DNA from: an uncultured Thalassospiraceae bacterium
Lineage (GTDB): Bacteria > Pseudomonadota > Alphaproteobacteria > Rhodospirillales > Casp-alpha2
Length of the DNA stretch: 64,000 nt
NCBI GenBank assembly: GCA_964344215.1
Contig: CAYFMP010000010.1
Span: forward strand, 7,446 to 71,445
Direction: 5' to 3'
The translations under genes were made by a program, and so were the position numbers. Of the stretch, positions 26,070 to 53,237 are shown in pieces. Numbering within the stretch: the first letter of the stretch is position 1; the number at the start of each line of letters is the position of its first letter. The notes below the pieces were generated by a model. That model made no database searches. It was given only the letters and a program-made list of their open reading frames with translations, and was not told the DNA's origin.

Positions 26070-28018
26070 TTCTCTCCCATGACGATACGAGTACCGGATT
26101 CGCCGCTTTCCAGCCTTTTCAGGTGAAAGGCGGCCAACCCATCCTCTGGATTCAATTCTAAAACATTCCGAAAAGCCGTAACAGCCTCGGGGTTATCCTC
26201 CTCCATATACCGGAAAGCCTCGGCATAGGCTGTGACGGCGCGCATAGTCTTGCTGTCATCGGAAACCGGTTCGAATACCTCGATCGCTTCCTCCTTGCCC
26301 TTCAGCACGAGGGCGCCGACTTGCCGGAATTCGAGGTCGGGACATTGGCGGGCGGTGGTTTCGCTGATGCAGACCCGGGTGCCGAGGTGCTTGTTGACGC
26401 TTTCCAGGCGGGCCGCCGTGTTGACGGTGTCGCCGAGGCCGGTGTAGTCGAAGAACTGCTCGCTGCCGAAGTTGCCGACGGTGGCGATCCCGGTATGGAC
26501 GCCGATACGGGTGATGCCGACTTCGACGCCGCGCGCCGCCTGGTCCTCGACGAAACGCTGGCCGAAGGCGTCCATCTCGAGGGCGCAGGCGACGGCGCGG
26601 GCCCGGTGGTCGGGCTGCTCGACCGGCGCATTGAAAAAGGCGACAACGGCATCGCCGATCAGCTTGTCCAGAGTCGCATCGTGCTTGAGCGCGATGTCCA
26701 GCATTCCGCCCATGTACTCCCACAGCAATTTGACCAGCGCTTCCGGCTCGGTGCGCTCGGTCAACGACGTGAAGCTAGCCATGTCGGTGAACAGGAAGGT
26801 CAGTTCGCGGCGGTCGCCGCCGACCTTGAGCTGGTCGGGGTCGGCGATCAATTGGTCGACGACGGAGCGCGACACGAAGTGCGAAAAGGCCTCGCGGATG
26901 TAGCGTTTCTGCTCGCGGTCGCGGCGCCCGAGATAAGCGACGCCGCCGCCGCTGCCGATCAGAAAGGCGATCGAGGGAGGCAGCAGCGGTAGCATCAGGC
27001 CGGTTTGGCCATAGGCGGCGAAGCCGCCGATCCAGACGGCGGCGACGATGACGGCGACCAGTAGGCCCTTGACGGCGGTGACGGCGTCGAGCGCCGCCAC
27101 CGCCAACCCGAGAACGGCGACCGCCAGGACCAGCGCCGCCGTGCCGCCGGTGCCGAGCGCCGGCTTGTTGCGGCCGTCGAGCAGTTGGGCCAGGGCGTGG
27201 GCATGGACGACGACGCCGGGCAGCGAGCCGGCACGGGCGCCGCGGGCGGCGGCGAACGGGGTGCGGTGGCGGTCGATCATCGGCAGGTCTGCACCGATCA
27301 GGAAGACCTTGCCGGCCAGCCACGGCTTCGGCAGGAACGCCGCGGTATGGGCCGGGAACCTCTTGAAGGCGGGAGTTTTGGAGTCGGGCGGCGGCCGGTA
27401 GGCGAGGTCGAGGTCGTCTTTCGGCGTCGAGCGACCGAGAAGGTCGGCGATGACGCTCATGAAGCCGGGCCGCCACTTGCCGTCGATGGTCTCGCCGGCA
27501 TAGATCCAGCGCACGGTGCCGTCGGCGCCGTCCTTGGCCAGGTTGGCCGGGCCGCTGCGGATGCCGGAGGTGAAGGCGCCGAGATAGGCTGCTTGCTTCT
27601 TGGTCAGTCCGAACCCCTTGCCGGCCGAAGCGACCACGACCGGCGTCGACAACTCAAGCAGGGTTTTGCGGAGCAGGTTGTCCTTGGCCGGCTCGGTCGG
27701 CTGGTCGAACAGGATGTCGATACCGATGGCGGCCGGCCTGGCTTCGTCGAGTTTCCTCAAGAGCGCCGCCAGGAAACCGCGGTCGACCGGCGAGCGGTAG
27801 GGAAGCGCCGCCAGGGTGTCCTCGGTGATGGTGAGGACGACGACGTCCGCGTTCTGCGGTTCGGGCGAGGCCAGGGCGCCGAACCGGAAATCGGCCAGCC
27901 AGTTCTCCGTCACCTGGACGATCGGCAGCAGGCGTGGCAGGCCGAGGCCGACGCTGGCCGAAAGAACGGCGATCAGCAGAACCGGAACGATGTCTCGAGG
28001 GGAAATCGAATGGAACAT
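26066..28018 (-). CDS. CHASE2-sensor class III adenylate/guanylate cyclase with a C-terminal TPR-like tail
   Basis: 650 aa. N-terminal TM + CHASE2 (VVVLTITEDTLAALPYRSPVDRGFLA), three TMs, cyclase core (LTFLFTDMASFTSL...KLIGDAV...FGSEQFFDYTGLGDTVNTAARLES). Confidence 0.9.
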   Translation of the reverse strand: MFHSISPRDIVPVLLIAVLSASVGLGLPRLLPIVQVTENWLADFRFGALASPEPQNADVVVLTITEDTLAALPYRSPVDRGFLAALLRKLDEARPAAIGIDILFDQPTEPAKDNLLRKTLLELSTPVVVASAGKGFGLTKKQAAYLGAFTSGIRSGPANLAKDGADGTVRWIYAGETIDGKWRPGFMSVIADLLGRSTPKDDLDLAYRPPPDSKTPAFKRFPAHTAAFLPKPWLAGKVFLIGADLPMIDRHRTPFAAARGARAGSLPGVVVHAHALAQLLDGRNKPALGTGGTAALVLAVAVLGLAVAALDAVTAVKGLLVAVIVAAVWIGGFAAYGQTGLMLPLLPPSIAFLIGSGGGVAYLGRRDREQKRYIREAFSHFVSRSVVDQLIADPDQLKVGGDRRELTFLFTDMASFTSLTERTEPEALVKLLWEYMGGMLDIALKHDATLDKLIGDAVVAFFNAPVEQPDHRARAVACALEMDAFGQRFVEDQAARGVEVGITRIGVHTGIATVGNFGSEQFFDYTGLGDTVNTAARLESVNKHLGTRVCISETTARQCPDLEFRQVGALVLKGKEEAIEVFEPVSDDSKTMRAVTAYAEAFRYMEEDNPEAVTAFRNVLELNPEDGLAAFHLKRLESGESGTRIVMGEK

Positions 28019-31328: not shown

Positions 31329-32219
31329 ATGCGCATCACGACCTTCCTGTTTCTCCTGTGGGCCGGCATCGGGGTCGGCGGACTCATCCTGGAAGAGGTC
31401 GAGGCGTGGTGGCAGGATAGCTTTTCGCGCCGGCCGGATCCTCGGATCTTCGAAGGACCGCTTTGGGAGTTCGCCACCGAGGATTGGCAGCACTGGGATG
31501 TTGCCCCGAGCGAGAACGAAGTTCCGAGGCAGGCACCCGTGTTGAAAGAGATGGTTATCGAGGAACTCGAGGAAGGTGGCCCCGTCGTCGGGACGGCGTT
31601 CTCCGTGACAAGATCGGGATACTGGCTGACCGCCCGTCATGTCGTCGACAACTGCGGGAAGGTGCTGATCCAGGTCGCCTCGGATACGGGTATCAGAGTA
31701 CGAAAAATTGTCTCTCACCCGAAAGCCGATGTCAGTCTGCTGGAGACCGACCGGGGGTTCCCGCCGCTGGCCGTCGCGAAGGAGGCTGGGGACCCCGAGA
31801 ACGGATTTCACTTCGGTTTTCCACGCGCCATTCCGGGCGCGCTTCACACCACGTATCTGGGTCAAGGCCGTATCATGTTTCCAAGCCGGGTCGACTCCTC
31901 GGAGCCTGTTTTCGTCTGGACCGAGGAATCGCGCGTGCCGAATGTTTTCGAATCGCTGGGTGGGATAAGCGGTGGCCCGGTCGTCGACGATGCGGGTCGG
32001 GTCATCGGCGTGATATTGGCGGAATCGGCACGCCGCGGACGGACCTACTCGGCGACGCCCGCGACGGTCGGCCAGACACTCGATCTGGCCGGAGCCGACA
32101 TCACGGCGCCGGATACCGCCTTTTCTTACCGGCAAAGACTTACGGCAGACGATTACGCCAAGTTCGGCCGTGCCGTCATAAGAGGCTTGACGGTGGCCCG
32201 GGTGATCTGCCGGCAATAG
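31329..32219 (+). CDS. Membrane-anchored trypsin-like (S1-fold) serine peptidase
   Basis: 296 aa with an N-terminal TM. His context GTAFSVTRSGYWLTARHVV, Asp context ADVSLL, Ser context GGISGGPVVD. Confidence 0.7.
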   Translation: MRITTFLFLLWAGIGVGGLILEEVEAWWQDSFSRRPDPRIFEGPLWEFATEDWQHWDVAPSENEVPRQAPVLKEMVIEELEEGGPVVGTAFSVTRSGYWLTARHVVDNCGKVLIQVASDTGIRVRKIVSHPKADVSLLETDRGFPPLAVAKEAGDPENGFHFGFPRAIPGALHTTYLGQGRIMFPSRVDSSEPVFVWTEESRVPNVFESLGGISGGPVVDDAGRVIGVILAESARRGRTYSATPATVGQTLDLAGADITAPDTAFSYRQRLTADDYAKFGRAVIRGLTVARVICRQ

Positions 32220-32243: not shown

Positions 32244-32729
32244 CTACCTGGCGAGCGAGAAAATCTCGGTCAACAGCCGACCGATAGTTTCCGCCATGCC
32301 GTCGAGGTCCCGATAGACGGCTTTCAGGGCCCGAACGTGGGCGAACACCAGAACCGCGACGGCGATCGCTACGACGGCGCGACCGATCCTGCCTCTTCCC
32401 CAACCTATACCCAACACCGCGCAGATCGCCGGCCACCAGATCATGTAGACGATCACCAACCCCGGAGTCGAAAGGCGGCGGACCGGCGGAACAAGAAGCG
32501 GTGGAATCGCCATCAGATATTCCAACGGTTTCAGGGCGGAAATCCCCTGCGCCGCGCCGCTCAACCCGATGGCCAGCAATAGGACGGCAATCGCCATGCC
32601 GATCACGGCGCCGACCGACCATGGCTTCCTCAGGTGTTCCAATTTCGGACCATACTTCCAGTTCGGATCACGGACGACGATACACGAGTGCGACCGCCAC
32701 GTCTCGAACGGGAGGCAAGGGAACGGCAA
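32244..32729 (-). CDS. Hypothetical membrane protein
   Basis: 161-aa ORF with a TTG start. Three to four hydrophobic segments. Start uncertain. Confidence 0.4.
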   Translation of the reverse strand: MPFPCLPFETWRSHSCIVVRDPNWKYGPKLEHLRKPWSVGAVIGMAIAVLLLAIGLSGAAQGISALKPLEYLMAIPPLLVPPVRRLSTPGLVIVYMIWWPAICAVLGIGWGRGRIGRAVVAIAVAVLVFAHVRALKAVYRDLDGMAETIGRLLTEIFSLAR

Positions 32730-32830: not shown

Positions 32831-34135
32831 TTAGTTGCTCGGCTCGACGTTCGAAGCGGGCTCGTCTTCGTCGGCTGCCGGCCCGGAAAGGGGCGGGGTT
32901 CCCTCCACCGGTTTGATTTTGAGCGGTGGAATGCGGATATCCGGAAACACTTTGACGACGTGGTTTCGGTGCGCCCACCTGACGATGCCGGCGAGGTCGC
33001 CGTAGGCGGCGATGGCCTCGTCCTCGGCGCCGAACCGCACGAATGCCCGCAGGCTCGGGCCATACTCGTCGATCTGCCACGGCCAGCCGTAGGTGAGCTC
33101 CATGTGTCGATGGGGCGGATAGAGCGGCGAGGCGACCACCCGCAGGTACTTCTCGCCGATCCGGTCCAACTCCTCGATCCCCGTCGGGTGCTCCAGGTGG
33201 TGAGGGAAGACCACGTTGCCGGCGGTGTCCCGGTGGTGGCCTCCGAACCGCTTGAGCACCTTGCGAGCCGTCTCCGGGGTCAGGGCGAGCAGAACCTCGC
33301 CGGGAATCGGTCCCGGCTTCAACGGCCGGCTCCTTGCCGCCACCTCGGCCTCCGAGGGGCGCCAGGATAACCAGGCGGTGACGAACTCCAGGAGGTTGCG
33401 AACGTATCTGGTGTGACCGAGTCGCAGGTCCACCCTGACCAGGTAGTACTTGATCAGAGGCGAGTTCGGCGCATTGAGGCGGGCCTGATGCAAGCGTGCC
33501 GCCGACTCGTTCAATCGCCCCAGACGCTCGAGGGCGACGGCGTGAGCGAGTTCGCAGTCCCACCAACAGTACCCATGGCCGCCGTTGCTTTCGACAAGCA
33601 GTCGTTCGGCCTCGACGTTTTCGCCGAGAGCCAGGAGCGCCCAGGCCCGATACTTGGGAAGCTCCTTGAACGCCGACTTCTCGATCGTCCCCGCCATTTT
33701 CTCCAGAAGCGAAGCGGCCTCCCGGAAGTCGCCACGATCCATCATCTCGACCGCGCGATAGAGGGTCTTGCGCCACGGCTCCCGACCCCGGTAGCGCGGA
33801 TTGAAGCGGCTGAAACCGCCGGCCAGCGTCAGGGGATCGATGGGCTCGACACCGGCCGCGACGGCGGCGGAAAGAAGCTCCTGCGCTTCATCGACGTTTC
33901 CCTCCCGCAGGGCTTCGACGACCGGCAATTCGGAGGTCGGCTCGGCCGCCAGCGAACCGTCCACCGGCAAGGCGACCAGCAGCGACCAGAGGATTATCGA
34001 CGCCAGCGCCGCCGCGACCCATGAACGGACGGACGCGGACTTGGAATCGGTCTTCCGGCCCACTCCATCGGTCACGGAAGGGATGTGGGCGGTCCTGTTG
34101 GGCAGATATTGAGGAGTAGAACGGCGTTTTCTCAT
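32831..34135 (-). CDS. Anchored/secreted helical-repeat (TPR-like) protein with an unrecognised His-rich C-terminal half
   Basis: 434 aa. The ATG lies 3 nt after the stop of the giant gene (TAAaccATG). N-terminal TM WVAAALASIILWSLLVALPV. TPR-like helices. C-terminus GGHHRDTAGNVVFPHHLEH... Confidence 0.65.
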   Translation of the reverse strand: MRKRRSTPQYLPNRTAHIPSVTDGVGRKTDSKSASVRSWVAAALASIILWSLLVALPVDGSLAAEPTSELPVVEALREGNVDEAQELLSAAVAAGVEPIDPLTLAGGFSRFNPRYRGREPWRKTLYRAVEMMDRGDFREAASLLEKMAGTIEKSAFKELPKYRAWALLALGENVEAERLLVESNGGHGYCWWDCELAHAVALERLGRLNESAARLHQARLNAPNSPLIKYYLVRVDLRLGHTRYVRNLLEFVTAWLSWRPSEAEVAARSRPLKPGPIPGEVLLALTPETARKVLKRFGGHHRDTAGNVVFPHHLEHPTGIEELDRIGEKYLRVVASPLYPPHRHMELTYGWPWQIDEYGPSLRAFVRFGAEDEAIAAYGDLAGIVRWAHRNHVVKVFPDIRIPPLKIKPVEGTPPLSGPAADEDEPASNVEPSN

Positions 34136-34138
34136 GGT

Positions 34139-37100
34139 TTACTGGCTCCACGACCCGTCGGCCTGCCGGCAGGCGACGGATTGTCCGGTGCGTTCCTCGC
34201 GTCCCTTGAGGATGAATATCTGCCGATAGACGCGGCAGGGCTCGCCGTTCTGACCCGCGAAGCGGCCGCTCAGGACGATCAGGCCGGCATGTCCGATTCC
34301 GTTGTTCTCCCAGCGAAAAGCCTCTCCGTCGCGGGCGATCTGAAAAGCCGCCAGGTAGGTTTCGTGAATGACATCGCGGTCGGCCTTCGTCAGCCGCGTC
34401 TTCACGGAATCGCTGACGCCGGGGCCGAGCAACGTCGTGTCGATGCGCTTCAGGAACGCGAGCTTCGCCTGCTGCATTGCCTGCTTCTTGGCTTCCTGCT
34501 CCTTGATCTCGAGCAACCGCTGCTGCTCGGCCAGCGCCTGCTGCGCGCGCGCTTCGAGAACCGTGGCCCGCTGCGCCATCAGGCCCTCGTGCCCGGGGGA
34601 TACGTCGAGCCCCTTGGCGGCGAAGGACCCGGCCTTCTCGAATTCCTCCATTATGAGGGCGTTCCTCGACAGTGCCAGATAACGCTCGGCGATGCGGACC
34701 ATTCCTTCCTTTGCTTCTCGGCTGTCCGGATCGATTTCGAGGACGCTCCGGAGCGTCTCGTAGGCGTTGTCGCCGGGCGGCGCGGTCAGGCGATCCGCGG
34801 CCAGCTGCCCGGCGGCCGTATCGAGGAGTTGGCGGAGCCGGTCGGATGGGGGCGGCGGCGCCAGCGAGGCCGTAACCGCCGCCGATTCCTTTTCGAGATC
34901 CTCGGAAAGCTCCTTTTGCGGCGGTGTTTGGCCCGGCCGCTCGTAGGCGACCAGTCGCGGTTGTCGTGCCGCCACGGTGCGTCCTTCCTTGTCCACTTGA
35001 ATCAGGGTCGTCTTGCGATCGGCGATCTCGACGCCGTCGATGCGGACATCCTTGCCGGCGGCGCGGATCACCACGCCGTAAACGCCGGCCGGAACCTCCA
35101 CGGCCGGGCCGCCGACCCGTCCGTCCGCGATCGTCTCTCCGCCCAGGTCGCGCACCTCGAACGGCGCGTTGAAGGTTTGGCGGAGGGCGGCGCGAAGCTT
35201 TTCTGCGTTGCCGGCTTCGTAGAACGTACCGCCAGCCACTTCCGCCAGGTCGCGAAGACTGTCGGCGATGTTCTTGCGGCCGACGGCGAATCCGACGATG
35301 TCCATTCGAACCTTGAAACCGGACTCCCGCAAGTCGCGGATAACTTCCGGCGGAAAGTATGGACTTCCCGGTCCATGGCAATCGTCGACGCCGTCGGTGA
35401 CCAGGATCACCTTTCTGTCCTCGGCGTCGGACGGAAAGTCGCCGGGGATCTGGCTCAGGCTGTAGCCCATGGCCGTCTGGCTCTTGCGCCCGCCGTGGAC
35501 GCGCTGGCCGATCCATTCGATGAGCTTGCCCCGGTAATCCGCGTTCATCGGCACGATCTTCGCCACCTGCCCCGTCGTCGAGAGACAGCGATCGCGCTTG
35601 CTGGCGTTGGGATTGCTCGGCGGAAACCCGAAAGCCCGCAGTCCCAGAAGAACCCCGTCGGGGATGTCCTCGATCATGCCGATAAGCGCTTTCTTCGCCG
35701 CCGTCAGCCTGTTCTTCTCTTTCGGGCAGCGGACGTCGCGGTTCAGGCACCATCCCATGCTGCCGGAGAGATCGACCACGAGGTCGATGGCGGCGGCGTT
35801 CGGGGCGACGACCCGCTCGCCGATCTCTTCTATTCGCAGGGTTCCCATGCCCCGGGATACGTCGGCTTTGAGGCGGTAAAAGGTATCGCTCGAGATTTCC
35901 TCGCGAACGGCGCCATAGAGATCGACAAGTCTTTCGGAGGCGGGCGTGAACAGGAACCGCCCGCCGGTCGCTTCCGCCATGGCGCGCAGCGTGTCGGCGC
36001 CGGTGCTGGCGTAGTCCTTGGAGAAGACGTCCCAAAAATAACTCAACGGCTCGCCGAGCCCGATGGTGTAAATGCGGACGGAATCGGTCTCGACGGTCTC
36101 CCAGAACTTCCGGTAGGACGCGCCCTTGGACGTGGAATCCTTGCCGTCGGTCATGGCGATGATGGCCCTGTTCCCGACCTTGCCGACCGCTTCCTTGGCG
36201 GCGACGATGGCGTCGAAGAACGAGGTCCCCCCCTTGGCATAGATCACACGATCCTTTCCGGTGTTTTCCAGAATCCCGATCAGCAGGCAATGCTGCCGGG
36301 CCGATCCGCTCTCGGGGCAGGCGTCCTTGACCTGCTGCTGTGCCTTCTCTGGATCGATTTCCTCGACATCCGCCCCGAACCGAATCAGACGGATGTCCTC
36401 GTCGGCCGGGGCGCCGCGGATATAGGAAACGAGCGCCTCGCGCAGGTGCTCGGTCCGGCCCTCCATGCTGCCGCTGGTGTCAAAGACGAGAGCGACCGTG
36501 GTCCTCGGCTGACTGACGCGGAACCGGTAACGACCGGCCGGCACGTTCCACGACCAGTCGAACCGGGGCGTCGTCGCCGTCGCCGGGCTGAAGGTCTTGA
36601 CCGTGTTTCCCGTCTCGTCCTCCAGTCCGACCGAGGTTCGAATGTAGGGCCGACTCTCCATCTCCACGTTGATGGTGTTGAAAGGTTCCTCCGGCGCCAA
36701 GGCGAAGAAATCGGTCTCGCCGGAGCGGGTTCGACCGGCGACGGTTTTTCCCGTTTGCAGCGGGTTGGCCGTGGCCGGCGTATCGTTGGCCTCGGTCTCG
36801 CAAACGACGTCGGCGCCGCCGCAGGCGAACGGCTCGACGCCGCCCGGTGTCGTTGCCCGCGCCCCCACGGCTTCGCTACCGGGTCGGGCCTCGACGAGGA
36901 TAGAGTGGCGGCCGCCGGCGGTCTCCTCGATCACGCGGACCTTCCCTAGGGTCGTGCGCGAACCGCCGTGATTCGACAGGATGCGCAACTCCACATAGCG
37001 CGCCGGTGTCGGTTCATTGAAGACAAGCTCCCATGGGCCGCCTTCTTTCGACAGGACCAGCGGCTGCGGTCGGTCGAAAGCCGCCGTCCGGAAATCGGCA

Positions 37101-39787
37101 ACCGGGCTTCGGCGCGAGACCAGGACCCGGAGGTCCTTGATGCGCGTCTCCGGCGGATCAGTGGCCGAGGGGACGACAACGATCTTGCGAAGTAGCGCCT
37201 CGCGGCCGTCGCGGAAGCCGATCACCAACCGAATGGGGAAGTCCTCCTCGCCCCGCGTCTCGGGTGTTGCCCAGGCCATCTTCTCCAGCTTTTCGTCACG
37301 ATGGTCGATCAGCAGGCTGGCGTTTCTTTCCTGCTCCTGGGTCGAGAAGAACGCCAGGTGTCCGCCCAAGCGGGAGTCGGCGATGTCGAACTCGGCGTCG
37401 GCCAGGACGGAAGCGCGGCCGGCCGCCTCGAAGACCTTGACCTCGCCCAGGACCGGCGCCTTGCCGCCGTAGGTGGAGCGGACGATCAACTTCAGGAAAC
37501 GCGCCTCGGTCGGCGCGAATCGCACCACCCGGGGTCCCCAGTCGGAATCCAGGATATAGGTGCCGATCTTCGCAAAACCGGCTTCGTCCTGAAAACTCTC
37601 CGCCGTCGAGGCGTGCAGTTCGAACAGACGGACGTGGCGAGCGGGCTTCCTGCCTCCGGCTTCGACGCGGGAATCCAGTACCACGGTGTCGATCGTGGCC
37701 ACTTGCCCGTCTCGAAAAGCGAGGATCAGTTGTTGGGTCTGGCCCGGTCCGTCATTCCCCGACCAGCCCGGCGACGCCGCGTGGCTGCCGTCCGTCAGGT
37801 ATCTCGCGAACCAACCGTTGTCGTTGTACGGATAGGAGCCGGCGTATTCGGAAGTGGCGGCGACGACACGGCCGCCGAGGCCGTTCCAGGCGATATTCAG
37901 GCGGCCCGCCGTCTGCCCGGCCAGCGGTTCCGTGAAAGCTTCGGCCAACAGGGTGGTCTCGCCGGCGGCCGGGGTTTCGGGGACGATCACGTCGTCGATC
38001 GCCGCCCTCAGCGTGTAGGGTTCTCCGCCGATGGCTCGATAAACGGACCGTATGGCGACGCGAAGGCGGCGGGCGCGGACGGCCGGAAACGAGAGTTCCT
38101 GGTAGGCCTCGACGTTGTCCAGCAGATAGGTGCCGAGCGGCGTGAAATCGCCGGCCTGTTCGGAGTTCGAGTAGGACACCTCCACCTCTCTCGGCACTGC
38201 GGTCTTGGAATACCCGCCGACGACGGGGCGCAGGAGAAGGCGGTCGAGCCGCGCCTCACGCCCGTCCAGGAAGCCGAGGACGAATCCCTGGCCGGCGGCG
38301 GCGCCCGCAGTCAGCCACGATCCCGCCGAGGGGCCGATCAGCTTGTCCTTGTCGGCGGCGCGCGACGACACCCAGATCACCCGGCCGCCGAGGGCGGGAT
38401 CGGCCAGGTTGGCCATGCGGTCGCTCTTCGCGACCTCGGCCACCGGCCGCGTCCGAACGCCCTCGAGTATCGACGGGCGGCCCTGGGATTCCAGGGCCAT
38501 CAACTCGACGATCCCGTAGCGGCCGCCGGCGTGGGTGGAAAGCACCCTGAGCTTGAGCCGCCGCGCCCGGACCGGCGCGAAGGCGATCTCCTGGAAGCGC
38601 ATCACCGGCCGCATCTGAGCCCGTCCGACGGTTCTGAAGTCGTCTCCCTCGGCGCTGGAGGACACGGCCACCTCGATCTCTTTCGGAAAGCCCCGCCCCT
38701 TGTCCGGCATCACAACGACCTTTTCGAGCAGCGCCTCGCGGTCGCCGAAGAACGAGAACACCAGGTCGTGCGGCAGGTCGGCCCGTTGCGGGAGCCAGTT
38801 GGTGTACGAGTCGCCGTCGATCATCCTGATTCTTTCGCTCTTGTAGGACGGCACGGACGCGACCCATCCACCGTTGGCGAAGGCGGCGACGTTGACGGCC
38901 GGGCCGACGTCGGCTTCCTCGATCGGGTGGACCGGCAACGTCGGCGTCGGTTCCGCTTCCGCCGCCGATCCGGCCGGCGGGGACGCCGGTTCGGCGGCAT
39001 CTGGCGCGGCGGCGGGCTTCGAGGTTGCGGGCGCAACCGGCGCCTCGGCCGTTTCGGTCGCCGATGCCGCCGAAGGCGGTGGCGCCTCGGGCGTTTCGGT
39101 GGCCGGCGCGGCGACGGCGCCGGCCGGCGGTTCCGCCGCCTCCAGGACCATGATCTCGCCGATCGCCGCTTTTCGCGGCTTGCCGGGCCTGCCTTCGTAG
39201 ATCGACAGGATGCGGACGCGGACGAAGCGCGCCGGCCGCGGCGCGAAGGCCAGCGACTGCAAGCTCTTTTGTTCCTTCAGCAGATAGACGCCGACGGCCT
39301 CGAAGCCGGTTTTCGGTCCGCTCGCCGAAACGGCGATCTCGACCTCCTTGGGCAGCCGCCCGCGCTGCCAGTGGCCGGAGCGGATCACCACCCGGTCGAT
39401 TGTCGCCGTCCCGCCGCCCAGTTCGATGACGATGTCCGTGGGCTCGACCGGCGACAGGTCCTCGCCCGCCCGCCAGCCGTTTTTCAGCTTGCCGTCGATG
39501 AGACGGTCCTTGGCGAAATCGTTGGACGGCACGCCGACGACCCGGCCGCCGGCCGCGGAAAGCGCCAGATTGCTAGAGGCCGAAAGTTCGGGATCGGCAA
39601 TTGGCTTTGCTACCTCGGCTTCAGCCGCCAGCGGGAGCACGGTTGGAATACTGAGTAGAAGGCCGGCGACAGTTGCAGCAGCGCAGCAGAACGCAAGTCG
39701 GGCACTGAGACGTGCGACAGGGTTTGGAGAAAGACATGTTACCGTGTCAACGTATGTATATCTCCGTTCGTGTGTCCGCCAAAACAT
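34139..39787 (-). CDS. Giant (1,882 aa) membrane-anchored multidomain surface protein: 5x discoidin-like, PPC-like, 2x vWA, coiled coil, surface-antigen-like end
   Basis: ATG at 39785-39787, or TTG at 39814. ORF-track numbering: TM 41-65; F5/8-type-C-like modules about 80-225, 305-442, 468-612, 638-796, 808-963; PPC-like 1003-1102 (NDTPATANPL); vWA1 1105-1300 (DTSGSM, GGTSFF, MTDGKD); vWA2 1342-1550 (DLSGSM, SQTAMG, VTDGVDD); coiled coil 1750-1790; C-terminal WENNGIGHAG...CRVYRQ...ACRQADGSW. Confidence 0.85.
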   Translation of the reverse strand: MFWRTHERRYTYVDTVTCLSPNPVARLSARLAFCCAAATVAGLLLSIPTVLPLAAEAEVAKPIADPELSASSNLALSAAGGRVVGVPSNDFAKDRLIDGKLKNGWRAGEDLSPVEPTDIVIELGGGTATIDRVVIRSGHWQRGRLPKEVEIAVSASGPKTGFEAVGVYLLKEQKSLQSLAFAPRPARFVRVRILSIYEGRPGKPRKAAIGEIMVLEAAEPPAGAVAAPATETPEAPPPSAASATETAEAPVAPATSKPAAAPDAAEPASPPAGSAAEAEPTPTLPVHPIEEADVGPAVNVAAFANGGWVASVPSYKSERIRMIDGDSYTNWLPQRADLPHDLVFSFFGDREALLEKVVVMPDKGRGFPKEIEVAVSSSAEGDDFRTVGRAQMRPVMRFQEIAFAPVRARRLKLRVLSTHAGGRYGIVELMALESQGRPSILEGVRTRPVAEVAKSDRMANLADPALGGRVIWVSSRAADKDKLIGPSAGSWLTAGAAAGQGFVLGFLDGREARLDRLLLRPVVGGYSKTAVPREVEVSYSNSEQAGDFTPLGTYLLDNVEAYQELSFPAVRARRLRVAIRSVYRAIGGEPYTLRAAIDDVIVPETPAAGETTLLAEAFTEPLAGQTAGRLNIAWNGLGGRVVAATSEYAGSYPYNDNGWFARYLTDGSHAASPGWSGNDGPGQTQQLILAFRDGQVATIDTVVLDSRVEAGGRKPARHVRLFELHASTAESFQDEAGFAKIGTYILDSDWGPRVVRFAPTEARFLKLIVRSTYGGKAPVLGEVKVFEAAGRASVLADAEFDIADSRLGGHLAFFSTQEQERNASLLIDHRDEKLEKMAWATPETRGEEDFPIRLVIGFRDGREALLRKIVVVPSATDPPETRIKDLRVLVSRRSPVADFRTAAFDRPQPLVLSKEGGPWELVFNEPTPARYVELRILSNHGGSRTTLGKVRVIEETAGGRHSILVEARPGSEAVGARATTPGGVEPFACGGADVVCETEANDTPATANPLQTGKTVAGRTRSGETDFFALAPEEPFNTINVEMESRPYIRTSVGLEDETGNTVKTFSPATATTPRFDWSWNVPAGRYRFRVSQPRTTVALVFDTSGSMEGRTEHLREALVSYIRGAPADEDIRLIRFGADVEEIDPEKAQQQVKDACPESGSARQHCLLIGILENTGKDRVIYAKGGTSFFDAIVAAKEAVGKVGNRAIIAMTDGKDSTSKGASYRKFWETVETDSVRIYTIGLGEPLSYFWDVFSKDYASTGADTLRAMAEATGGRFLFTPASERLVDLYGAVREEISSDTFYRLKADVSRGMGTLRIEEIGERVVAPNAAAIDLVVDLSGSMGWCLNRDVRCPKEKNRLTAAKKALIGMIEDIPDGVLLGLRAFGFPPSNPNASKRDRCLSTTGQVAKIVPMNADYRGKLIEWIGQRVHGGRKSQTAMGYSLSQIPGDFPSDAEDRKVILVTDGVDDCHGPGSPYFPPEVIRDLRESGFKVRMDIVGFAVGRKNIADSLRDLAEVAGGTFYEAGNAEKLRAALRQTFNAPFEVRDLGGETIADGRVGGPAVEVPAGVYGVVIRAAGKDVRIDGVEIADRKTTLIQVDKEGRTVAARQPRLVAYERPGQTPPQKELSEDLEKESAAVTASLAPPPPSDRLRQLLDTAAGQLAADRLTAPPGDNAYETLRSVLEIDPDSREAKEGMVRIAERYLALSRNALIMEEFEKAGSFAAKGLDVSPGHEGLMAQRATVLEARAQQALAEQQRLLEIKEQEAKKQAMQQAKLAFLKRIDTTLLGPGVSDSVKTRLTKADRDVIHETYLAAFQIARDGEAFRWENNGIGHAGLIVLSGRFAGQNGEPCRVYRQIFILKGREERTGQSVACRQADGSWSQ

Positions 39788-39861
39788 CCCTTTTTCTTCG
39801 TCGATGTTCACCAATTTCGTTTTCTCGTTCGATAGAGAATCTGGTTACACTGCTCCTCTAT

Positions 39862-42405
39862 CTACAGTCTTCCACCTAGGATCTTTCCAGGGTTCCCCAT
39901 ACTCGGAACGGTTCCAATAATCCCACCAACCACCTGAACAATGATTGCCTGGTAAAAACGTTTCCGGCCCAATGAAAGAATTCCCCCGAATCCAGAAACC
40001 AAACCAGCGAATCCACAGATCCCGACATCGGTCCAATCGTTCGCGCTGATCATGCACTGACCGACGTTTATGATGCCGACTAACACATGGATAATGAATC
40101 TCTCAGTAAGGTCCTGACCTCTTCCCCCTTCCATTATGCCCAGCAGATCTCCGTTGGTCGGATCAATTCGCCACCATCCCACGAGGAGGCCAGAGGTCGT
40201 TTCAGAAAACTTCTCCGGCACAATGACGACGGCACCTCTGCGCAGGTCTCCTTCAATGTCCGCTTTCGCATTCTCCGAAATTTCGAGTTGTTCCAATTCA
40301 CTCAAGGATTTTTCATCGCCGCGCAATAAAACCAGCCGAACGTCATTCTTAGCGGCAGCGTCGAAAACGGCTTTTATATTGTTCGAAACCCGCCAGGAAC
40401 CTGGTGAAGAGTTCGCTGGCCTCACGAAAAGTTGGGCGAGGTGCCTCTCAACGGCCGTCTCGATGATGCCCTTGTACATTCGGTATTTTGTGGCACTCCG
40501 GCCTTCAGCATCGTTTGCTTCATTTTGCCTGGAAAACACACGTACGGGAGTGCGAACGATGTCAAATCCTTCGGTCATTGTGGCTTGTTTCGCGCCCTTG
40601 GCCGACATACGCCGCTCGTAGATCACCAATCCGGGTCGGTTGACGAAGGATCGGAGGTCGGGAAATCGTATTTCTGCAAGGGATGCCGCAGCCGATGCCG
40701 AGTTTCTCTCAAATTCCATCAACCTACTTGGAAACAACCGAACTCTTTGCTTGGCAATAGAAGTGTCCTCGGCGGAACGATTGTACGCTATGCTCAACAG
40801 TGAATTCAGGTACTTCCTGTTTCCCGTGATTGTTGCAATATGACTGTAGGTGAGATAGGCCTCATCAAGTAGTCCTACTGGCGTCATGATTTCCATGGAG
40901 CGAAACAGTTGTAGTTTCAGCTTTTCGATGTCCCGGTACACTCTGGGGTGAGCGGACCAATGTTCCCTCCCACTCTTCGACCATTTTTCGATCGAGATTG
41001 ATTTTGCGATGTCACGGCGAACGCTGAACCGACTCACCTCCGCTCCTAGACCCCGTGGCGAATCCAAAGTGTAGGTCGCCCAAAGCCCTCCGATGCGCTT
41101 GCCATCCGATTGCGGCGGAGTCGTCGAATTCTTACTGGTTGTTGGTTGTGTCAGAGGCGTCAATCGTCCAATGATCGACGTTAACGTTTCCCTTTGGGGC
41201 GCGGCAAAGTTTCCAAGCATCGTTGCCAACGAACCTTTCTTATAGTCGTAAACCCTGCCGTGGAAGTCGAAGGAGCGGCCGATTACGGGGTCGTAATCTC
41301 CAACAATCAGCATAGGCGTGAATTCGGAGATAGCCGCAATCCTCTCCCTCGACGTTAGTTTTTGGTTGGGGTTTATGTTTGGTAGATTGATCAGGACAAC
41401 GCTCTGGCCGACTAATTCTGCTACGCGCAGTTTCACCGCGAGCAGCTCGTGATCTACGGTTTCACCGCCATTCTGCATTTCCGCATGGTCAATCGTGCGA
41501 AGTATGACACTCAAGCCGAGGACATGAAAAAGCCTATCGGGCAAGGTATTTAAAAAATACGATGGATCGGCTGGAACTTCCCCAACGTTGGAGTTGCCGA
41601 ACGAAGGGTCGACGTTGATCCAATTTCCCGATCGGTCTTGAAATTGCACCCAGAAATGCTCACGCGCTTCGGCCACCATCTCTTTATACGTTCGGCCACG
41701 GTCATCATCGGTTCCGAGTGCGACCCCGTATTCGGACAGTGTGTGATTGATTAGCGCATAATCGTCTTCCACATCTTCCCAGAGATGTTCCGCAAAATCC
41801 TCAGATCGATCGGTAATCTCACTGTGAACACGCTGTAGAGCAGAATTATCGAGACCCAACATACCTAAAAGCTTGCTCACTTCTTCCAGAGTGATTATGT
41901 CCGCTTTATCGCCAAGTGTTGTTTTTGGTTCGAATACTTCTTCCACCAACCTCTTGGCATCGCCATCGCCGAGCCGTCCCATGGCGAACCGCGTCTTGAA
42001 CCCATTCTTTTTCAGAAGTTCCGCCAGCAGCACGCTTTGATCGAGCGAGTTGCCGGCCCGTCCCATCAGCGTCCCCTTGGCGCCGCGCAACACCCCCCAA
42101 TAGGGCTCGTAGCGCACCTCGTCGCGGACGAAGGCGAAGATCTTCTCGACGTCCGGCCCCAGCGCCTCCGCCTTGGCTTCGACGTCGAACCTGGTCTTGT
42201 CGATCTTCCCTTCCAGGTATTCGAGGGCGGCGAACATGCGGTCCAGCCGCTCCTTCGCCTGCTCGTAGGTCAAGTCGGGCCGGGCTTCGCCCGGCGCCGG
42301 CGCGCCGGTCTGGGCGACGACTTGAGACGGCAGCACGGTCGCCGCCGCGAAGGCGGCGGCGGTGAGCGCGGCGATGGTTTTCCGACGAACGATGGAACAA
42401 AGCAC
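39862..42405 (-). CDS. Secreted transglutaminase-fold protein (Ser at the nucleophile position) with a Gly-rich hydrophobic C-terminus
   Basis: 847 aa from the GTG at 42403-42405 (GGGAGG 7 nt upstream). Signal peptide ...AAFAAATVLPSQVVAQ. TGase-core-like VRDEVRYEPYWGVLRGAKGTLMGRAGNSLDQSVLLAELLKKNGFKTRF and HFWVQFQDRSGNWINVDPSF. Confidence 0.78.
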   Translation of the reverse strand: MLCSIVRRKTIAALTAAAFAAATVLPSQVVAQTGAPAPGEARPDLTYEQAKERLDRMFAALEYLEGKIDKTRFDVEAKAEALGPDVEKIFAFVRDEVRYEPYWGVLRGAKGTLMGRAGNSLDQSVLLAELLKKNGFKTRFAMGRLGDGDAKRLVEEVFEPKTTLGDKADIITLEEVSKLLGMLGLDNSALQRVHSEITDRSEDFAEHLWEDVEDDYALINHTLSEYGVALGTDDDRGRTYKEMVAEAREHFWVQFQDRSGNWINVDPSFGNSNVGEVPADPSYFLNTLPDRLFHVLGLSVILRTIDHAEMQNGGETVDHELLAVKLRVAELVGQSVVLINLPNINPNQKLTSRERIAAISEFTPMLIVGDYDPVIGRSFDFHGRVYDYKKGSLATMLGNFAAPQRETLTSIIGRLTPLTQPTTSKNSTTPPQSDGKRIGGLWATYTLDSPRGLGAEVSRFSVRRDIAKSISIEKWSKSGREHWSAHPRVYRDIEKLKLQLFRSMEIMTPVGLLDEAYLTYSHIATITGNRKYLNSLLSIAYNRSAEDTSIAKQRVRLFPSRLMEFERNSASAAASLAEIRFPDLRSFVNRPGLVIYERRMSAKGAKQATMTEGFDIVRTPVRVFSRQNEANDAEGRSATKYRMYKGIIETAVERHLAQLFVRPANSSPGSWRVSNNIKAVFDAAAKNDVRLVLLRGDEKSLSELEQLEISENAKADIEGDLRRGAVVIVPEKFSETTSGLLVGWWRIDPTNGDLLGIMEGGRGQDLTERFIIHVLVGIINVGQCMISANDWTDVGICGFAGLVSGFGGILSLGRKRFYQAIIVQVVGGIIGTVPSMGNPGKILGGRL

Positions 42406-42632: not shown

Positions 42633-42977
42633 TTAGCCAGGTCCGGGCACGCTCGAATTCGGCCCGTCGAAGACGCAAGGCGCGCAGAGCCGGTCGCAGC
42701 GGAGCGCCGCCAGGATGTCCTTCAAACCGTGCAGCGTCAGGTGCGGTGTTCGGCGGATTTGCTCAACGATGAAGTCCCGATGTCGATCAAGGACTAGACG
42801 GCGATGTCCGCCCATCTGGCCCGGCGCCACGCTGCCCGTCGCCCAATAGCGTTGCGACCACTTCACCACAGAGGAAACCGCAACACCAAAACGCTCGCCA
42901 ACAGACCGGCAGCTCTCCCCAGACCCAACCGCCGAAACAACCCGTTCTCGAAGATCATTGGAAAAAGGCCGTGCCAT
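42633..42977 (-). mobile_element. IS630-family transposase N-terminal remnant
   Basis: MARPFSNDLRERVVSAVGSGESCRSVGERFGVAVSSVVKWSQRYWATGSVAPGQMGGHRR... is the HTH part of IS630-type transposases. Homology stops after about 95 aa. No DDE domain or inverted repeats were found. Confidence 0.7.
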
Positions 42978-43148
42978 GGAGGCTGGCCTCCTCCTCGAGC
43001 ATCCATCCTGAATCACATTCTCAGCAAAATGGGGATCCCATGTCGATTCAATCACGCAATGACAGGCTCTAGAACGACATCACCAAGACCCAAACAACCG
43101 AGCTTGTCTCATGGGCCCGATTATAGAAGCGGACTTCTCGACCCACAC

Positions 43149-45992
43149 TCAATGAAATGGATTTTCCAAGGTTGCCTTCTTGATCGCCGCAACCAACTGT
43201 GCCCTCTTGTAGGGCTTGCGGAGTAGGGTCACGTTGCGGTGTGCGGTATCGTCGGGGCTGCATTGGTTGATGTCCTTGTCGGGATATCCCGATGTCAGCA
43301 GCATCTTGATTCGAGGATGCTTCCGCCCGACGACTTCGGCGAGGTCGAACCCGCTCATTCCTGCAGGCATGATGACGTCGCTGAGCACCAAATCGATGGT
43401 GTCGCCTCTGGCATCCAGGATTTCCTGTGCCGACGGTCCGTCTTCTGCATCAATCACCCGACAACCAAGCTTGCTCAAAGTGCAGGCTGTTGTCGCTCGA
43501 ACCTGCGGGTCGTCCTCGACCACCAAGACGGTCTTCTCCTCGAGTGCGGCGGCAGATAACGGCGTATCATCCCCTTGCTGCCTGTTCCCTCTCTTTGCAA
43601 TCGGAAGATAGAGTGAAATTGTCGTTCCCTCTCCCTTCTTGCTGGCGACACCGACATGGCCATTGGATTGGTGAATGAACCCGTAGACCATACTTAGGCC
43701 CAGGCCGGTGCCCTCTCCGATCCCCTTCGTCGTGAAGAACGGCTCCAGCACTCGATCAATGTTCTCCTCGTCAATTCCAACGCCTGTGTCGGTAACGGTG
43801 ATCAGGGCATGGAGACCGTAGACCTCTTCATTACTCGGTCCCAACCGTTCACCTCCAAGATCGACGGAAGACGTTCTTATGTTCAGCACGCCTCCATCCG
43901 GCATGGCGTCGCGTGCGTTGAGAGCCAAGTTGAGAAGGGCGTTGCCGAACAAGGCCGGGTCAACGTCGACAAGGAATTCTTCGTCAAAGAACTCCGTGTC
44001 GATCCTGATATCCTCGCCCAGCGTTCGCTCCAATAATCTGAGCGTGTCCGTAATCAGCTCATTGGCGTCTACGATCTTGGGAGAAAGCGTTTGTTGACGC
44101 GAAAAGGCAAGCAGCTGCTGAGTCAGGGCAGCCCCCTTGTCGACGGCCTTCAATGCCGCCTCGATATTGCTACGTAAGGGAGTATCGATTTGCATCTTGT
44201 CCATTGCCAACTCAAGGTTGCCGGCCACAATGTGCAGGATGTTGTTGAAGTCGTGGGCGACGCCTCCCGTCAATTGCCCGACGGCCTCCATCTTTTGCGC
44301 CTGGCGGAGTTGCTCCTCCGTGCGGTTGTGTTCTGTGAGATCGACATGCACCGCCCCAACCCCGACTATACCGCCATCAGAACCAAAAACCGGGAACTTG
44401 GTCGTGAGGAATTCCGTAACGGAATCGCCGCGATGGAACTTCTCGTCGCGTGAGATTACCTGTCTGCTCTCAATAACTTCACGATCATGATGTATGCCCG
44501 ACCGTGCGAAGTCGCTGTCGAAAACCTCGCGCGGAGTCCTGCCGATGATTGCCTCGGTGCTCATGCCGGCAATCGTCTCGAAGTACTTGTTGACCAACAA
44601 GTAGCGTCCTTCGATATCCTTAAGAGAGATTGCATCGGGAGAATTCTCGACAATTGCCCGCAACCTAGCCTCGTTTTCTCGCAACGCCTCCTCCGCCTGC
44701 GTCCGCTCGATGGCGATACTGGCCAGTTGGGCGGCGGTCTCGATGCTATCCAGGTCAAATCGGGTAGGCTGGCGCGGCTGGTGATAATACATGGCGAAAG
44801 TCCCCAGCACGTTACCGGCGCTCGATATGATCGGTTGCGACCAACACGCTCTCAGGTCCGCCGCGGCGGCAAGATCTCGGAAATCGACCCAGTAGGGGTG
44901 TGTCAGGACGTCCTCAGCAATGACCACTTCGCCGGTGTAAGCGGCCGCGCCGCACGAACCCACATCCTCGCCGATTTCCAGTCCGTCGATTGCTTCGTTG
45001 TAAAAGGCCGGCAGACTTGGCGCTGCCCCATGACGGAGCTGCCTGCCCTTATTGTCGAGAAGCAATACGGAGCCGAGCATTTCCGGGTTGATTTCCTCGG
45101 CGGTCGTTACCAGGAGCGATAAGACTTCCTCCAGTGAGCCTCCGGTGGCTAAACGTTCCAACACCTTGTTGCGGCCTTCAAACAGGGTCGCCATCCGGTG
45201 GCGCTCGGTGATTTCAATTGATATGGAACCCAGGCCGATGGGGTCGCCGCGTGAATCAAGGATCGGGAACCGGGTCTCCAGGTCCGTATGGAATTCTCCG
45301 TCGCGACAATATGGAATTTCGACCTCCTTACGAATCGCGGAACAGGTTTCCAAGACCTCGCGGTCGAAGTCCTCGATATAGTCGAAGGCCTTGTCGCTAT
45401 GGATATCGGCAGCGGTCTTTCCCTCAATCTCCCCAAGGGTGACGCCGTAGCGCTCCTCGAATTCGCGGTTCGCCAGGATGTAACGACCTTCCAGATCCTT
45501 GAACACGATCTCGACCGGCGAATTGTCGATGAGGGACCTAAGCTTGGCCTCTCTCAATTTAAGCTTCTTCTCCCTAGCCCGGCTTTGCCGGCGACTATCT
45601 GCCTGATCCAGCAGGTTTCGGACGATACTTGGAATCAACTCGAGATAGATGCCCTCGTTATCCTTGATTACATAGTTAGAGATACCGAGCGCCAAAGCCT
45701 CGGCTGCAATCCGCTCGCTCCCTTTTCCCACAACCATGATTATGGGAAGGTCGCCATCCTTCTCCAGAAGCTCCTGTGCAATCTCAATCCCGGGTCGGTC
45801 GGGGAGTTGAGAATCGACTGCGACGATGTCATACGGGGCATCGGCGTGCATCGCTAGACCGGCTTCGCCGCTAAAGGCGACATCGATCAGATAGCCGTAC
45901 GCTTCCACTGCCGTCTTGAACAGCTCACATAGCGGCTTTTCATCTTCGACATAGAGAATGCGAACGCCTCGCACGAACGGCCTCCTTTTCAT
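43149..45992 (-). CDS. Hybrid sensor histidine kinase: REC-PAS-GAF-PAS-HisKA-HATPase-REC
   Basis: 947 aa. N-terminal REC ([10 protein letters not shown]...VAVDSQLPD). GAF ([22 protein letters not shown]...). H-box [12 protein letters not shown]-boxes DTGVGI, GTGLGLS. C-terminal REC ([10 protein letters not shown]...[13 protein letters not shown]). Confidence 0.9.
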
Positions 45993-46114
45993 TCTACAAT
46001 AACGCGAAGAACGATTGTTGTTCAACCGGGTCTGGGAGCGTTAAAATATGCGAAAATATCAGAGAGGTGTATTTCCTGCATTGATCCGCGTCAAACGGGA
46101 ATTGATTTTCGTGC

Positions 46115-46525
46115 TTAGCCCAGCGACGTTTGCTCCTGATGCCGTGGCCCGCTCCAGCCACCGGCATCTCGATGTGCCGGAGTGTGGCTGACATCGCGTA
46201 TCGCAGCCGCCAATTCCATGAACTCAAAGGGTTTGCGAAGTAGGACTGCCTCGGTCTCGTCCGGCTCTTCTGCACTTGGGAAACCTTCCGAATGCTCCGA
46301 AGCCACCAGCACTTTTGTGCCTTGACAATGGCGTTTCAATTCTCAGGCCAGATCCAGACCACTCATCCCTGGAACCAAAACCATATCACTCACCACAAGA
46401 TCGGCATGGCCGTCCTAATCTTCGGGAAGCGTCAGAGCCGACGGGCTGTCTACCGCTTCCAGCCCGTCGTAGCCGAGCCGGTTTGGCTCGACGGCCATTT
46501 GTCGTCCATCAGCGTCTTGCCTGAA
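46115..46525 (-). pseudogene. Degraded receiver-domain (response regulator) gene
   Basis: The minus-strand frame reads ...RLGYDGLEAVDSPSALTLPED-TAG-DGHADLVVSDMVLVPGMSGLDLA-TGA-ELKRHCQGTKVLVASEHS...AVLLRKPFEFMELAAAIRDV. In-frame stops at 46415-46417 and 46343-46345. A probable frameshift lies near 46500. The 5' limit is approximate. Confidence 0.65.
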
Positions 46526-46667
46526 CGGGTTTTTTGCGTTGTTCCGGAATCTATCAGTTGCCGGCGATCATCAAGATTTCCAGATGTTTCGATATGTATC
46601 CGGGTTCCGTCGAGGCGCTTGGTGGAGCTAGAATCCGGCAGCTAGCTCGCGGGAACACCACCGCCGT

Positions 46668-47321
46668 TCAGACGTCCGCCACCGACTGGGAACCGACATT
46701 CCGATCGAGAGGAGTACCGGCGCTCACCCCTCCATGGAGGCTCTCTTCGCCGCTTTTCAGGTGGACGACGATGCCCTTGGAATCGTCGAGGTCGAGAGCC
46801 TTTTCATCATCGAGGCCGCGGCACGTCCCGCGTAACGCCTTGCCAGCTTCACGGTGGGTGACGACGACGTAGCAGGCATTCCGGTCCTGGACCGCAAGCC
46901 AAGAAAGAAGGCGCGATTTCGCGTTCTTGAAACTCTCGCCGCCAACGGGAACGTATACCGTGCGGTTGACGACCCAGTTCCCCCAGTCGTCGGGATAGCG
47001 CTCGTCGACCTCGTCCCGGGTTCTGCCCTCCCAGCGGCCGAAACTGCGTTCCATAAGACGTTCGTCAAAGAGAACGGTCTGGAAATCCCAACCCAGGTGA
47101 TTGCAGATGATCGCCGTCGTTTGCTTGCAGCATCGCAGTGGGCTCGACTGGAAGACGACGTTGTCGCGACCGGCCAGCTCAGGGGCCAACTGCGCCGCCG
47201 CCGCCTGGACCTGTGCGACGCCGGCCGGGGTCAAATCCGACTCCATTTGGCCCTGGAAAACCCCGTTGCGATCCCACTCGGTTTCGCCATGGCGGATCAG
47301 GTAGATCTCGGGATGCAGCAT
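46668..47321 (-). CDS. Histidine phosphatase family protein (phosphoglycerate-mutase-like)
   Basis: 217 aa. N-terminal IYLIRHGETEW (RHG motif). A later H in VVVTHREAG. Confidence 0.85.
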   Translation of the reverse strand: MLHPEIYLIRHGETEWDRNGVFQGQMESDLTPAGVAQVQAAAAQLAPELAGRDNVVFQSSPLRCCKQTTAIICNHLGWDFQTVLFDERLMERSFGRWEGRTRDEVDERYPDDWGNWVVNRTVYVPVGGESFKNAKSRLLSWLAVQDRNACYVVVTHREAGKALRGTCRGLDDEKALDLDDSKGIVVHLKSGEESLHGGVSAGTPLDRNVGSQSVADV

Positions 47322-53233: not shown

Positions 53234-53237
53234 GTGA

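Follow-up and report, generated by a model that had tools for sequence, protein, structure and literature searches.

The window analysed here, a stretch of 64,000 nucleotides from an uncultured Thalassospiraceae bacterium (contig CAYFMP010000010.1), contains three consecutive minus-strand genes, g1, g2 and g3, which encode a protein with a transglutaminase (TGase)/papain-like domain, a giant protein with discoidin and von Willebrand factor A (vWA) domains and a tetratricopeptide repeat (TPR) protein, respectively. Judging from sequence comparisons, this locus appears to be one example of a widespread, undescribed bacterial gene pair, made up of g1 and g2. A sequence-only reading of the same DNA had treated the three genes as one envelope module with a gene combination that it did not recognise as a described bacterial system. 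The novelty claim held within our searches of Pfam, NCBIfam, PADLOC, the Protein Data Bank (PDB) and the literature (the last gave no description of the g1–g2 pair), and the three open reading frames (ORFs) and their 74- and 3-bp spacers were recovered exactly as it had placed them:

39862..42405, minus strand: g1, 847 aa (the longest form of the ORF starts at 42495)
39788..39861, minus strand: g1–g2 spacer, 74 bp
34139..39787, minus strand: g2, 1,882 aa (the longest form of the ORF starts at 39814)
32831..34135, minus strand: g3, 434 aa

The linkage between g1 and g2 was assessed by a genome scan for g1, with one genome per species, which returned 78 loci from Alpha- and Gammaproteobacteria, Acidobacteriota, Gemmatimonadota, Trueperaceae/Deinococcaceae, Planctomycetota, Verrucomicrobiota and Ardenticatenaceae. 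A locus was considered well flanked if it extended for at least 5.5 kb on both sides, and the pair was scored as adjacent, from ORF calls together with tblastn, if a g2-like ORF of at least 1,000 aa lay within 1.2 kb. With these definitions, g1 and g2 adjoin in 24 of the 41 well-flanked loci, and these pair loci span at least six phyla (including Proteobacteria, Acidobacteriota, Gemmatimonadota, Deinococcota and Planctomycetota); in one further locus of the 41 (L026), the giant adjoins the g1 homologue but is in pieces. If all loci with a visible giant are counted, even where the opposite flank is short, the giant follows the g1 homologue on the same strand in 24 cases, precedes it on that strand in six and is divergent in two and convergent in two. 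A g2-like giant adjoins g1 homologues of 30–41% identity at L001, L004, L008 and L009: the L001 giant (1,919 aa) is 34% identical to g2 across 1,590 residues, and the L004 giant, which is in the divergent orientation, is 33% identical to g2 at full length. The reverse check gave a consistent picture, since two of three g2 relatives have a neighbouring g1 homologue, namely P0036 (L089, Thioalkalivibrio sp. XN279) and P0028, with L091 among these loci.

The remaining neighbours change from locus to locus. Eighty-eight loci were fetched for tblastn comparison, 83 of them distinct, and outside the pair each gene family is confined to at most eight of the 83. The sole recurring neighbour of note is a BTAD- and TPR-containing (SARP-like) regulator of ~845 aa, found upstream of the pair in eight loci (including L039, L044, L046 and L049) that form one related group of metagenome-assembled genomes (MAGs). 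The phosphatase gene upstream of the present locus shows no similarity to the L008 locus. Neither g3 nor the two genes that lie beyond it in the window (a small protein with three transmembrane (TM) segments and a trypsin-like protease) gave any tblastn match in the 83 loci, and no homologue of g3 other than g3 itself was found among 5.8 billion proteins. The conserved unit is therefore the pair and not the trio, so that, of the co-occurrence that the sequence-only reading had anticipated, the g1–g2 part stood and the g3 part did not. The adjacency of g1 and g2 is far beyond chance; because it holds across phyla and in four orientations while the other neighbours change, it would represent more than synteny by descent. 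This linkage, together with the reverse check, bears out the proposal of a functional tie between the TGase-fold protein and the giant. Genetics is feasible, since Thioalkalivibrio sp. XN279 and Wenzhouxiangella sp. XN79A, both named strains and apparently in culture, also have the pair.

Some loci deserve a mention of their own. At L033 (3953–18473), two g2-like giants (1,815 and 1,781 aa) flank one g1 homologue that lies on the opposite strand, and one Gemmatimonadales MAG has two separate g1 loci (L020 and L022). A putative g1–g2 fusion was rejected: the merged single-linkage cluster that suggested it came from overlapping ORF calls, and the tblastn frames of the two parts differ.

Regarding g1, the TGase/papain-like signature noticed in the sequence-only reading is borne out at the level of the fold: the Pfam model Transglut_core (PF01841) matches residues 84–267 with 31.2 bits for a cut-off of 23 (E = 2.8e-7). 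The main features of g1 are as follows:

41605..42156, minus strand: TGase/papain-like core, residues 84–267 (the Pfam stretch, including a helical insert of ~100 aa)
42046–42048, minus strand: S120, at the nucleophile position, with N119 immediately before
41656–41658, minus strand: H250
41608–41610, minus strand: D266
40090..41544, minus strand: conserved beta-rich/helical region, residues 288–772 (family alignments and AF2)
40117–40176, minus strand: invariant motif GWWRxD...G..LG....G.G, residues 744–763, at the end of the preceding region
39916..40098, minus strand: Gly-rich hydrophobic tail, a predicted membrane anchor, residues ~770–830

In the AF2 model of the full-length protein (predicted template modelling score, pTM, 0.76), the core displays a helix from residue 120, the helical insert of ~100 residues, the strand bearing the His (H250, on strand 249–256) and finally the Asp (D266, after strand 262–265), a modelled topology that is compatible with the papain/TGase order. 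Foldseek found no PDB match at E ≤ 1e-3 for this model, whose several domains limit the sensitivity of the search; the TGase-like structures 3kd4, 8z4f and 3isr matched weakly, all with E > 1. Sequence searches of the PDB, run with the g1 profile and with the core of g1, produced no meaningful match, and hhalign of the g1 family with a fragment of FXIIIa aligned only the Asp block, with D266 on the catalytic Asp and a low probability.

The part of the TGase assignment that did not stand is the catalytic residue. The catalytic Cys of TGases lies in a G-x-C motif at the N-terminus of the core helix. The corresponding position in g1 is occupied by S120, and a Cys was found there in none of the ~240 family sequences scored (19 homologues, 75 locus ORFs and 145 representatives), the residues observed being Ser, Ala, Gly, Asp, Pro, Asn and Thr. 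Ala, Gly, Asp or Pro occupies the position in about a quarter of the representatives and in more than half of the genome loci. N119 is retained in all but a few family sequences, D122, H250 and D266 are invariant in full-length g1 alignments, and the H.W...W..D motif that contains the His and the Asp is found in 136 of the 145 representatives. The TGase domain of the g1 family thus appears to lack a thiol nucleophile throughout while keeping an Asn-x-x-Asp...His...Asp pocket, which would amount either to conversion into a pseudoenzyme or to a change of nucleophile within the papain/TGase fold.

Since no Cys occupies the nucleophile position in ~240 sequences, thiol cross-linking of the clotting style, or thiol processing, is not supported. 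This bears directly on the parallel with metazoan clotting drawn in the sequence-only reading, according to which a transglutaminase would cross-link or process the giant into a clot-like matrix with the assistance of the TPR protein and the trypsin-like protease. The parallel is attractive: TGase-fold, discoidin, vWA and trypsin-like domains are all encoded within 11 kb, and every product is exported or anchored. It nevertheless fails, and we regard such a matrix as highly improbable, given that, besides the family-wide lack of the Cys, the protease is encoded on the other strand, neither its gene nor the TPR gene recurs in the 83 related loci and the TPR protein has no detectable homologue.

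The g1 family is large, and Pfam has a model for its first third only. A profile search of 1.84 billion cluster representatives (50%-identity clusters) gave 2,896 matches at E ≤ 1e-30 and 5,256 at E ≤ 1e-10; nearly all of the best 150 are full-length proteins of about 800 aa, and the closest relatives come from Alphaproteobacteria and Rhodospirillaceae MAGs. The C-terminal ~500 residues are matched by no Pfam or NCBIfam model, and NCBIfam and PADLOC scans returned nothing for g1 or g3. Residues 288–772, modelled separately, gave a pTM of 0.80, and the structure search that the sequence-only reading had advised for the C-terminal part of g1 yielded no PDB match at E ≤ 1e-3 (Foldseek), again with a several-domain model that limits sensitivity. 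The interest of the family lies partly here: 2,896 clusters at the stricter threshold share a C-terminal region without a counterpart in Pfam, NCBIfam or the PDB.

This region is followed by the Gly-rich tail, which contains two or three hydrophobic segments (residues 770–788 and 794–812 on the Kyte–Doolittle scale). At least one hydrophobic segment occurs after the WW motif in 119 of the 141 relatives that have the motif, and about 30 of the 149 g1 relatives scored have three to seven N-terminal TM segments. Because of its N-terminal signal, its C-terminal Gly-rich hydrophobic segments and the TM segments of its relatives, g1 is predicted to be an extracytoplasmic, membrane-anchored protein.

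The partner of g1 is organised into three parts, the first two of which overlap:

36908..39580, minus strand: five discoidin-like modules, residues ~70–960 (with a Pro/Ala-rich linker behind module 1)
34958..37540, minus strand: core common to the partners of g1 homologues, residues ~750–1610 (tblastn coverage, 50 loci)
34139..34840, minus strand: variable C-terminal tail (TPR-like helical segment, coiled coil and a weak 17kDa_Anti_2-like end)

The F5_F8_type_C model of Pfam (PF00754) matches g2 in three stretches with 79.1 bits for a cut-off of 28.2 (E = 4e-22), and an NADase_discoid match (NCBIfam) lies under its cut-off. Five such modules had been counted in the sequence-only reading. All five align to one domain of the L009 giant; scanned singly in Pfam, modules 1, 2 and 4 are matched with E ~1e-5, whereas module 5 gives E = 0.27 and module 3 no match, so that modules 3 and 5 owe their assignment to the alignment with the L009 module. 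The two vWA domains were confirmed by Pfam matches above the cut-offs (VWA_2/VWA_3 at residues 1098–1246 and VWA at 1336–1532), and each has the DxSxS motif of a metal-ion-dependent adhesion site (MIDAS): DTSGS at 1103 with TDG at 1213 in vWA1, and DLSGS at 1339 with TDG at 1464 in vWA2. The PPC-like module proposed between the discoidin and vWA parts was not recovered (PF04151 does not match g2, and residues 975–1095 give only FlgD_ig with E = 0.009). As for the surface-antigen-like end, 17kDa_Anti_2 does match it, but below threshold (E = 6e-4).

The conserved core consists of module 5, an unassigned module of ~100 aa, vWA1, vWA2 and a beta-sandwich, and at least one DxSxS motif is retained in 36 of 39 giant partners. 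The C-terminal tail is common to few relatives, as judged from tblastn coverage, and aligns with the L001 giant. With its N-terminal hydrophobic segment, g2 is predicted to be Sec-exported. OmpA or PG_binding_1 domains occur in some partner proteins and make the periplasm and peptidoglycan the likely place of action; together with the export and anchor signals, these domains agree with the proposal of an exported, envelope-located module.

We tentatively propose, as a reading that we rate only slightly more apt to be wrong than right, that g1 is a membrane-anchored, probably non-catalytic docking partner of the core of the giant, the two proteins together forming a scaffold for envelope tethering or adhesion. 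In such a mechanism, g1 would be exported and held in the cytoplasmic membrane by its Gly-rich C-terminal hydrophobic tail, and g2, exported by the Sec pathway, would reside in the periplasm or at the cell surface. The variable N-terminal array of lectin-like discoidin modules of g2 would bind envelope or matrix glycans, while its conserved core (module 5, vWA1, vWA2 and the beta-sandwich) would dock on g1, plausibly through a metal-ion-dependent vWA contact. The pair would thereby constitute a membrane-tethered scaffold that joins peptidoglycan, outer layers or matrix to the cytoplasmic membrane, and would serve adhesion or envelope tethering and not enzymatic cross-linking. Giants adjoin Ser-type and Ala-type g1 proteins alike (21 Ala-type proteins have a neighbouring giant).

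Several observations weigh against this docking scaffold. No giant was found within 1.2 kb in 16 of the 41 well-flanked loci, some giant-less loci carry instead a 650-aa discoidin/OmpA protein 0.2–2.4 kb downstream, and, in the reverse check, P0026, a giant with fused TPR repeats, has no adjoining g1 gene. The tail assigned as the membrane anchor is modelled poorly (the predicted local distance difference test score, pLDDT, of AF2 is <50 at residues 770–847). Lastly, the residue at the nucleophile position is Ser in 105 of the 145 representatives (~70%); in view of this predominance and of the invariant His and Asp, many members of the family may have Ser-His-Asp hydrolase activity.

The loci lacking a giant also bear on a more trivial explanation, namely that g1 and g2 are independent envelope proteins that are merely syntenic. 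Functionless adjacency would account for those 16 loci, but it is hardly credible as a general explanation: the linkage holds across phyla and in four orientations, while all other neighbours change. In one sub-clade (L013, L015, L017, L019 and L023), the giant is replaced by a partner of ~650 aa that begins with a discoidin-like part, continues with a SQHop_cyclase_C-like (alpha-toroid) region and ends in an OmpA domain of the peptidoglycan-binding kind. As a side observation, a DUF4412 protein is often encoded next after this partner in the same sub-clade.

The prevalence of Ser underlies the main rival to the docking scaffold, in which g1 is an active Ser-His-Asp hydrolase built on a papain/TGase scaffold that matures or releases g2 in the way LapG does LapA. 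Such processing has a precedent in the Lap system, where a TGase-like protease acts with a giant vWA adhesin (PMC10990149, PMC13090378, PMC4694147), and it would fit S120 in the present protein, the Ser of most representatives, the widespread His...Asp motif and the helix–strand–strand geometry of the core, which is preserved in the AF2 model. We nonetheless consider it unlikely, since a family-wide mechanism of this kind is contradicted by the Ala, Gly, Asp or Pro found in so many representatives and genome loci, and by the 21 Ala-type proteins encoded beside a giant; moreover, the LapG family is not matched, RTX repeats are lacking and no LapD- or T1SS-like family recurs in the compared loci.

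The comparison with Lap (LapG of the BTLCP family; LapA, CdrA or DvhA; LapD; and the LapBCE type I secretion system, T1SS) is instructive beyond catalysis. The likeness lies in a periplasm-facing TGase/papain-fold protein that is tied genetically to a giant modular vWA envelope protein. The differences are numerous: g1 is an 847-aa, membrane-anchored protein without the Cys and is not matched by the BTLCP/LapG family (PF06035) at E ≤ 0.01 in Pfam; g2 has a Sec signal peptide and no RTX repeats (RTX/HemolysinCabind gave no match in g2) or retention module; and LapD-type and LapBCE/T1SS genes were not found nearby, nor is there a conserved third gene in the 83 loci. In working mode, Lap would be the closest analogue; every defining Lap feature that could be tested is absent.

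A second point of comparison is TgpA of Pseudomonas aeruginosa, which keeps the Cys-His-Asp triad and whose usual genomic company is MoxR and DUF58. TgpA, described as a transglutaminase, resides in the inner membrane and has its Transglut_core domain in the periplasm (PMC3507681); its structure (PDB 6G49) is cited in PMC10318531. Like g1, it presents a Transglut_core fold to the periplasm from a membrane anchor, and the three to seven N-terminal TM segments of about 30 of the 149 g1 relatives extend the likeness. Unlike g1, it has neither the WW-motif region of ~500 aa nor a giant partner, and the TgpA chain is not among the best 50 Foldseek matches for g1.

Catalytically inactive TGase-fold scaffolds are known (EPB42, or band 4.2, Rad4/XPC and CC2D2A; PMC10318531). 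They resemble the mechanism proposed for g1 in that the nucleophile is lost and the fold is kept for binding or scaffolding, but they are eukaryotic and cytoplasmic or nuclear, and the classic pseudo-TGases often lose the His and Asp, both of which g1 keeps.

The Bat operon (BatA and BatB with vWA domains, BatC with TPRs, MoxR and DUF58) resembles the present locus in that genes for membrane or periplasmic vWA proteins lie beside a TPR gene. On this basis, we considered a vWA system of the Bat/MoxR type as well as defence or conflict systems built from vWA and peptidase modules: the TPR gene adjoins the vWA gene, as for BatB/BatC, the vWA region of g2 weakly matches the BatA model (19.9 bits, far under the cut-off of 380), and vWA–peptidase ternary systems exist (PMC7159879, PMC8195603). 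This explanation is very unlikely. The g1–g2 loci have no constant MoxR/DUF58 partner and no other family in more than eight of the 83 loci, AAA+ and DUF58 gave no match among the scanned window genes flanking the trio or the scanned recurring neighbour families, and the TPR gene found here is lineage-specific. In addition, g1 and g2 are not matched by the PADLOC anti-phage defence models and, in contrast to those cytoplasmic systems, are exported.

The pair fits a known pattern, in which a giant envelope protein is accompanied by its own TGase-fold accessory protein, and its mechanism has a real chance of being new. A more far-reaching view, which we find somewhat unlikely, is that the pair represents an unrecognised envelope system present in thousands of diderms, in which a TGase-fold protein whose thiol was replaced by Ser, or whose nucleophile was lost, forms an obligate complex with a lectin/vWA giant as a new membrane-to-wall or membrane-to-matrix tether, or else acts on the giant as a papain-fold enzyme with Ser-His-Asp chemistry; a new domain of ~500 residues would belong to this system, which would pass between lineages as a cassette. 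In any event, the pair provides a testable idea for proteins annotated as 'hypothetical' or 'VWA domain-containing' across many phyla.

The possibility of exchange is illustrated by the base composition of the g1/g2 junction. Along the first ~115 codons of g1, GC content at third codon positions (GC3) is 0.9–1.0; by codon 150 it has dropped to 0.4, and values of 0.35–0.6 persist across the spacer until about codon 70 of g2, where GC3 returns to 0.9:

39580..41970, minus strand: low-GC3 patch of ~2.4 kb (g1 codons ~150–847, the spacer and g2 codons 1 to ~70)

The patch thus takes in the last five-sixths of g1 (its 3' part), the spacer and the part of g2 that encodes the signal peptide; an ENA contig of an independent assembly shows the same junctions. 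Its edges coincide with 'RAGNSLDQSVLLAELL' in g1 and 'SNLALSAAGGRVVGV' in g2, the two blocks that are conserved best within the pair, and it therefore looks like a replacement by homologous recombination from a lower-GC relative carrying the pair. This arrangement suggests that the g1/g2 pair can be exchanged by recombination. Low GC3 as a trait of the g1 family was tried and rejected as an explanation: GC3 is lower in g1 than in the giant in 24 of 32 pairs, yet it is not below that of other neighbours.

The layout of the genes is consistent with a single transcription unit. The start of g1 is the GTG at 42405, with AAGGGAGG directly before it (classed as a Shine–Dalgarno-GTG start), no terminator-like site was found in the 74-bp g1–g2 spacer, and the g2/g3 junction reads TAA-acc-ATG, a 3-bp gap through which the translation of g3 is probably coupled to that of g2. 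The signal or anchor sequences ascribed to all three products were recovered by a hydropathy scan as one N-terminal hydrophobic segment apiece. The TPR-like nature of g3 was likewise verified, with Pfam TPR_19 and TPR_14 matches above or near the cut-off, and g3 is best described as a predicted anchored TPR protein, a lineage-specific addition outside the conserved pair. The GC3 of g2 and g3 (~0.82) corresponds to the codon bias of the surrounding region. Two further genes lie beyond g3:

32244..32729, minus strand: small protein with three TM segments (hydropathy), with a terminator-like hairpin at 32284–32266
31329..32219, plus strand: trypsin-like protein, convergent with the operon

In view of the hairpin, the 32244–32729 gene may close the transcript and is possibly the last gene on a g1-g2-g3 transcript; in this genome, g3 and perhaps the small membrane protein would be carried on the g1–g2 transcript. 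The trypsin-like assignment of the second gene is sound (Pfam Trypsin_2, E = 5e-14), but its place beside the trio has no counterpart in the 83 loci and, being on the plus strand and convergent, it is not co-transcribed with the operon. The TPR gene and the nearby protease gene are thus best regarded as local neighbours and not as parts of a conserved system.

Among the other neighbours of the trio are genes for hybrid histidine kinases, a phosphatase, an epimerase and a CHASE2 cyclase, and the window contains neither tRNA nor rRNA genes. Upstream of g1, a 140-aa ORF (42633–43055, minus strand) with PAX/HTH_23 matches only, possibly the N-terminal remnant of a transposase, separates it from a hybrid histidine kinase gene of lower GC (43149–46025). 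The latter opens a run of sensor kinases (43149–60401) with further hybrid histidine kinases at 47758–50808, 51182–53233 and 53238–57278 and a CHASE-domain kinase at 58245–60401; the CHASE2 adenylate/guanylate cyclase lies at 26066–28018. Other envelope-type products are encoded in the same block of 65% GC: a 596-aa PG_binding_1 protein (15949–17739, minus strand) and a 349-aa Sel1-repeat protein (6586–7635, minus strand). Finally, the Rfam family PYLIS_3 matches positions 22079–22178 (minus strand) with 59 bits, inside an MttB-family gene (21675–23378; Pfam MTTB, E = 1.6e-109), and this match probably reflects coding-sequence conservation and not a working Pyl element.

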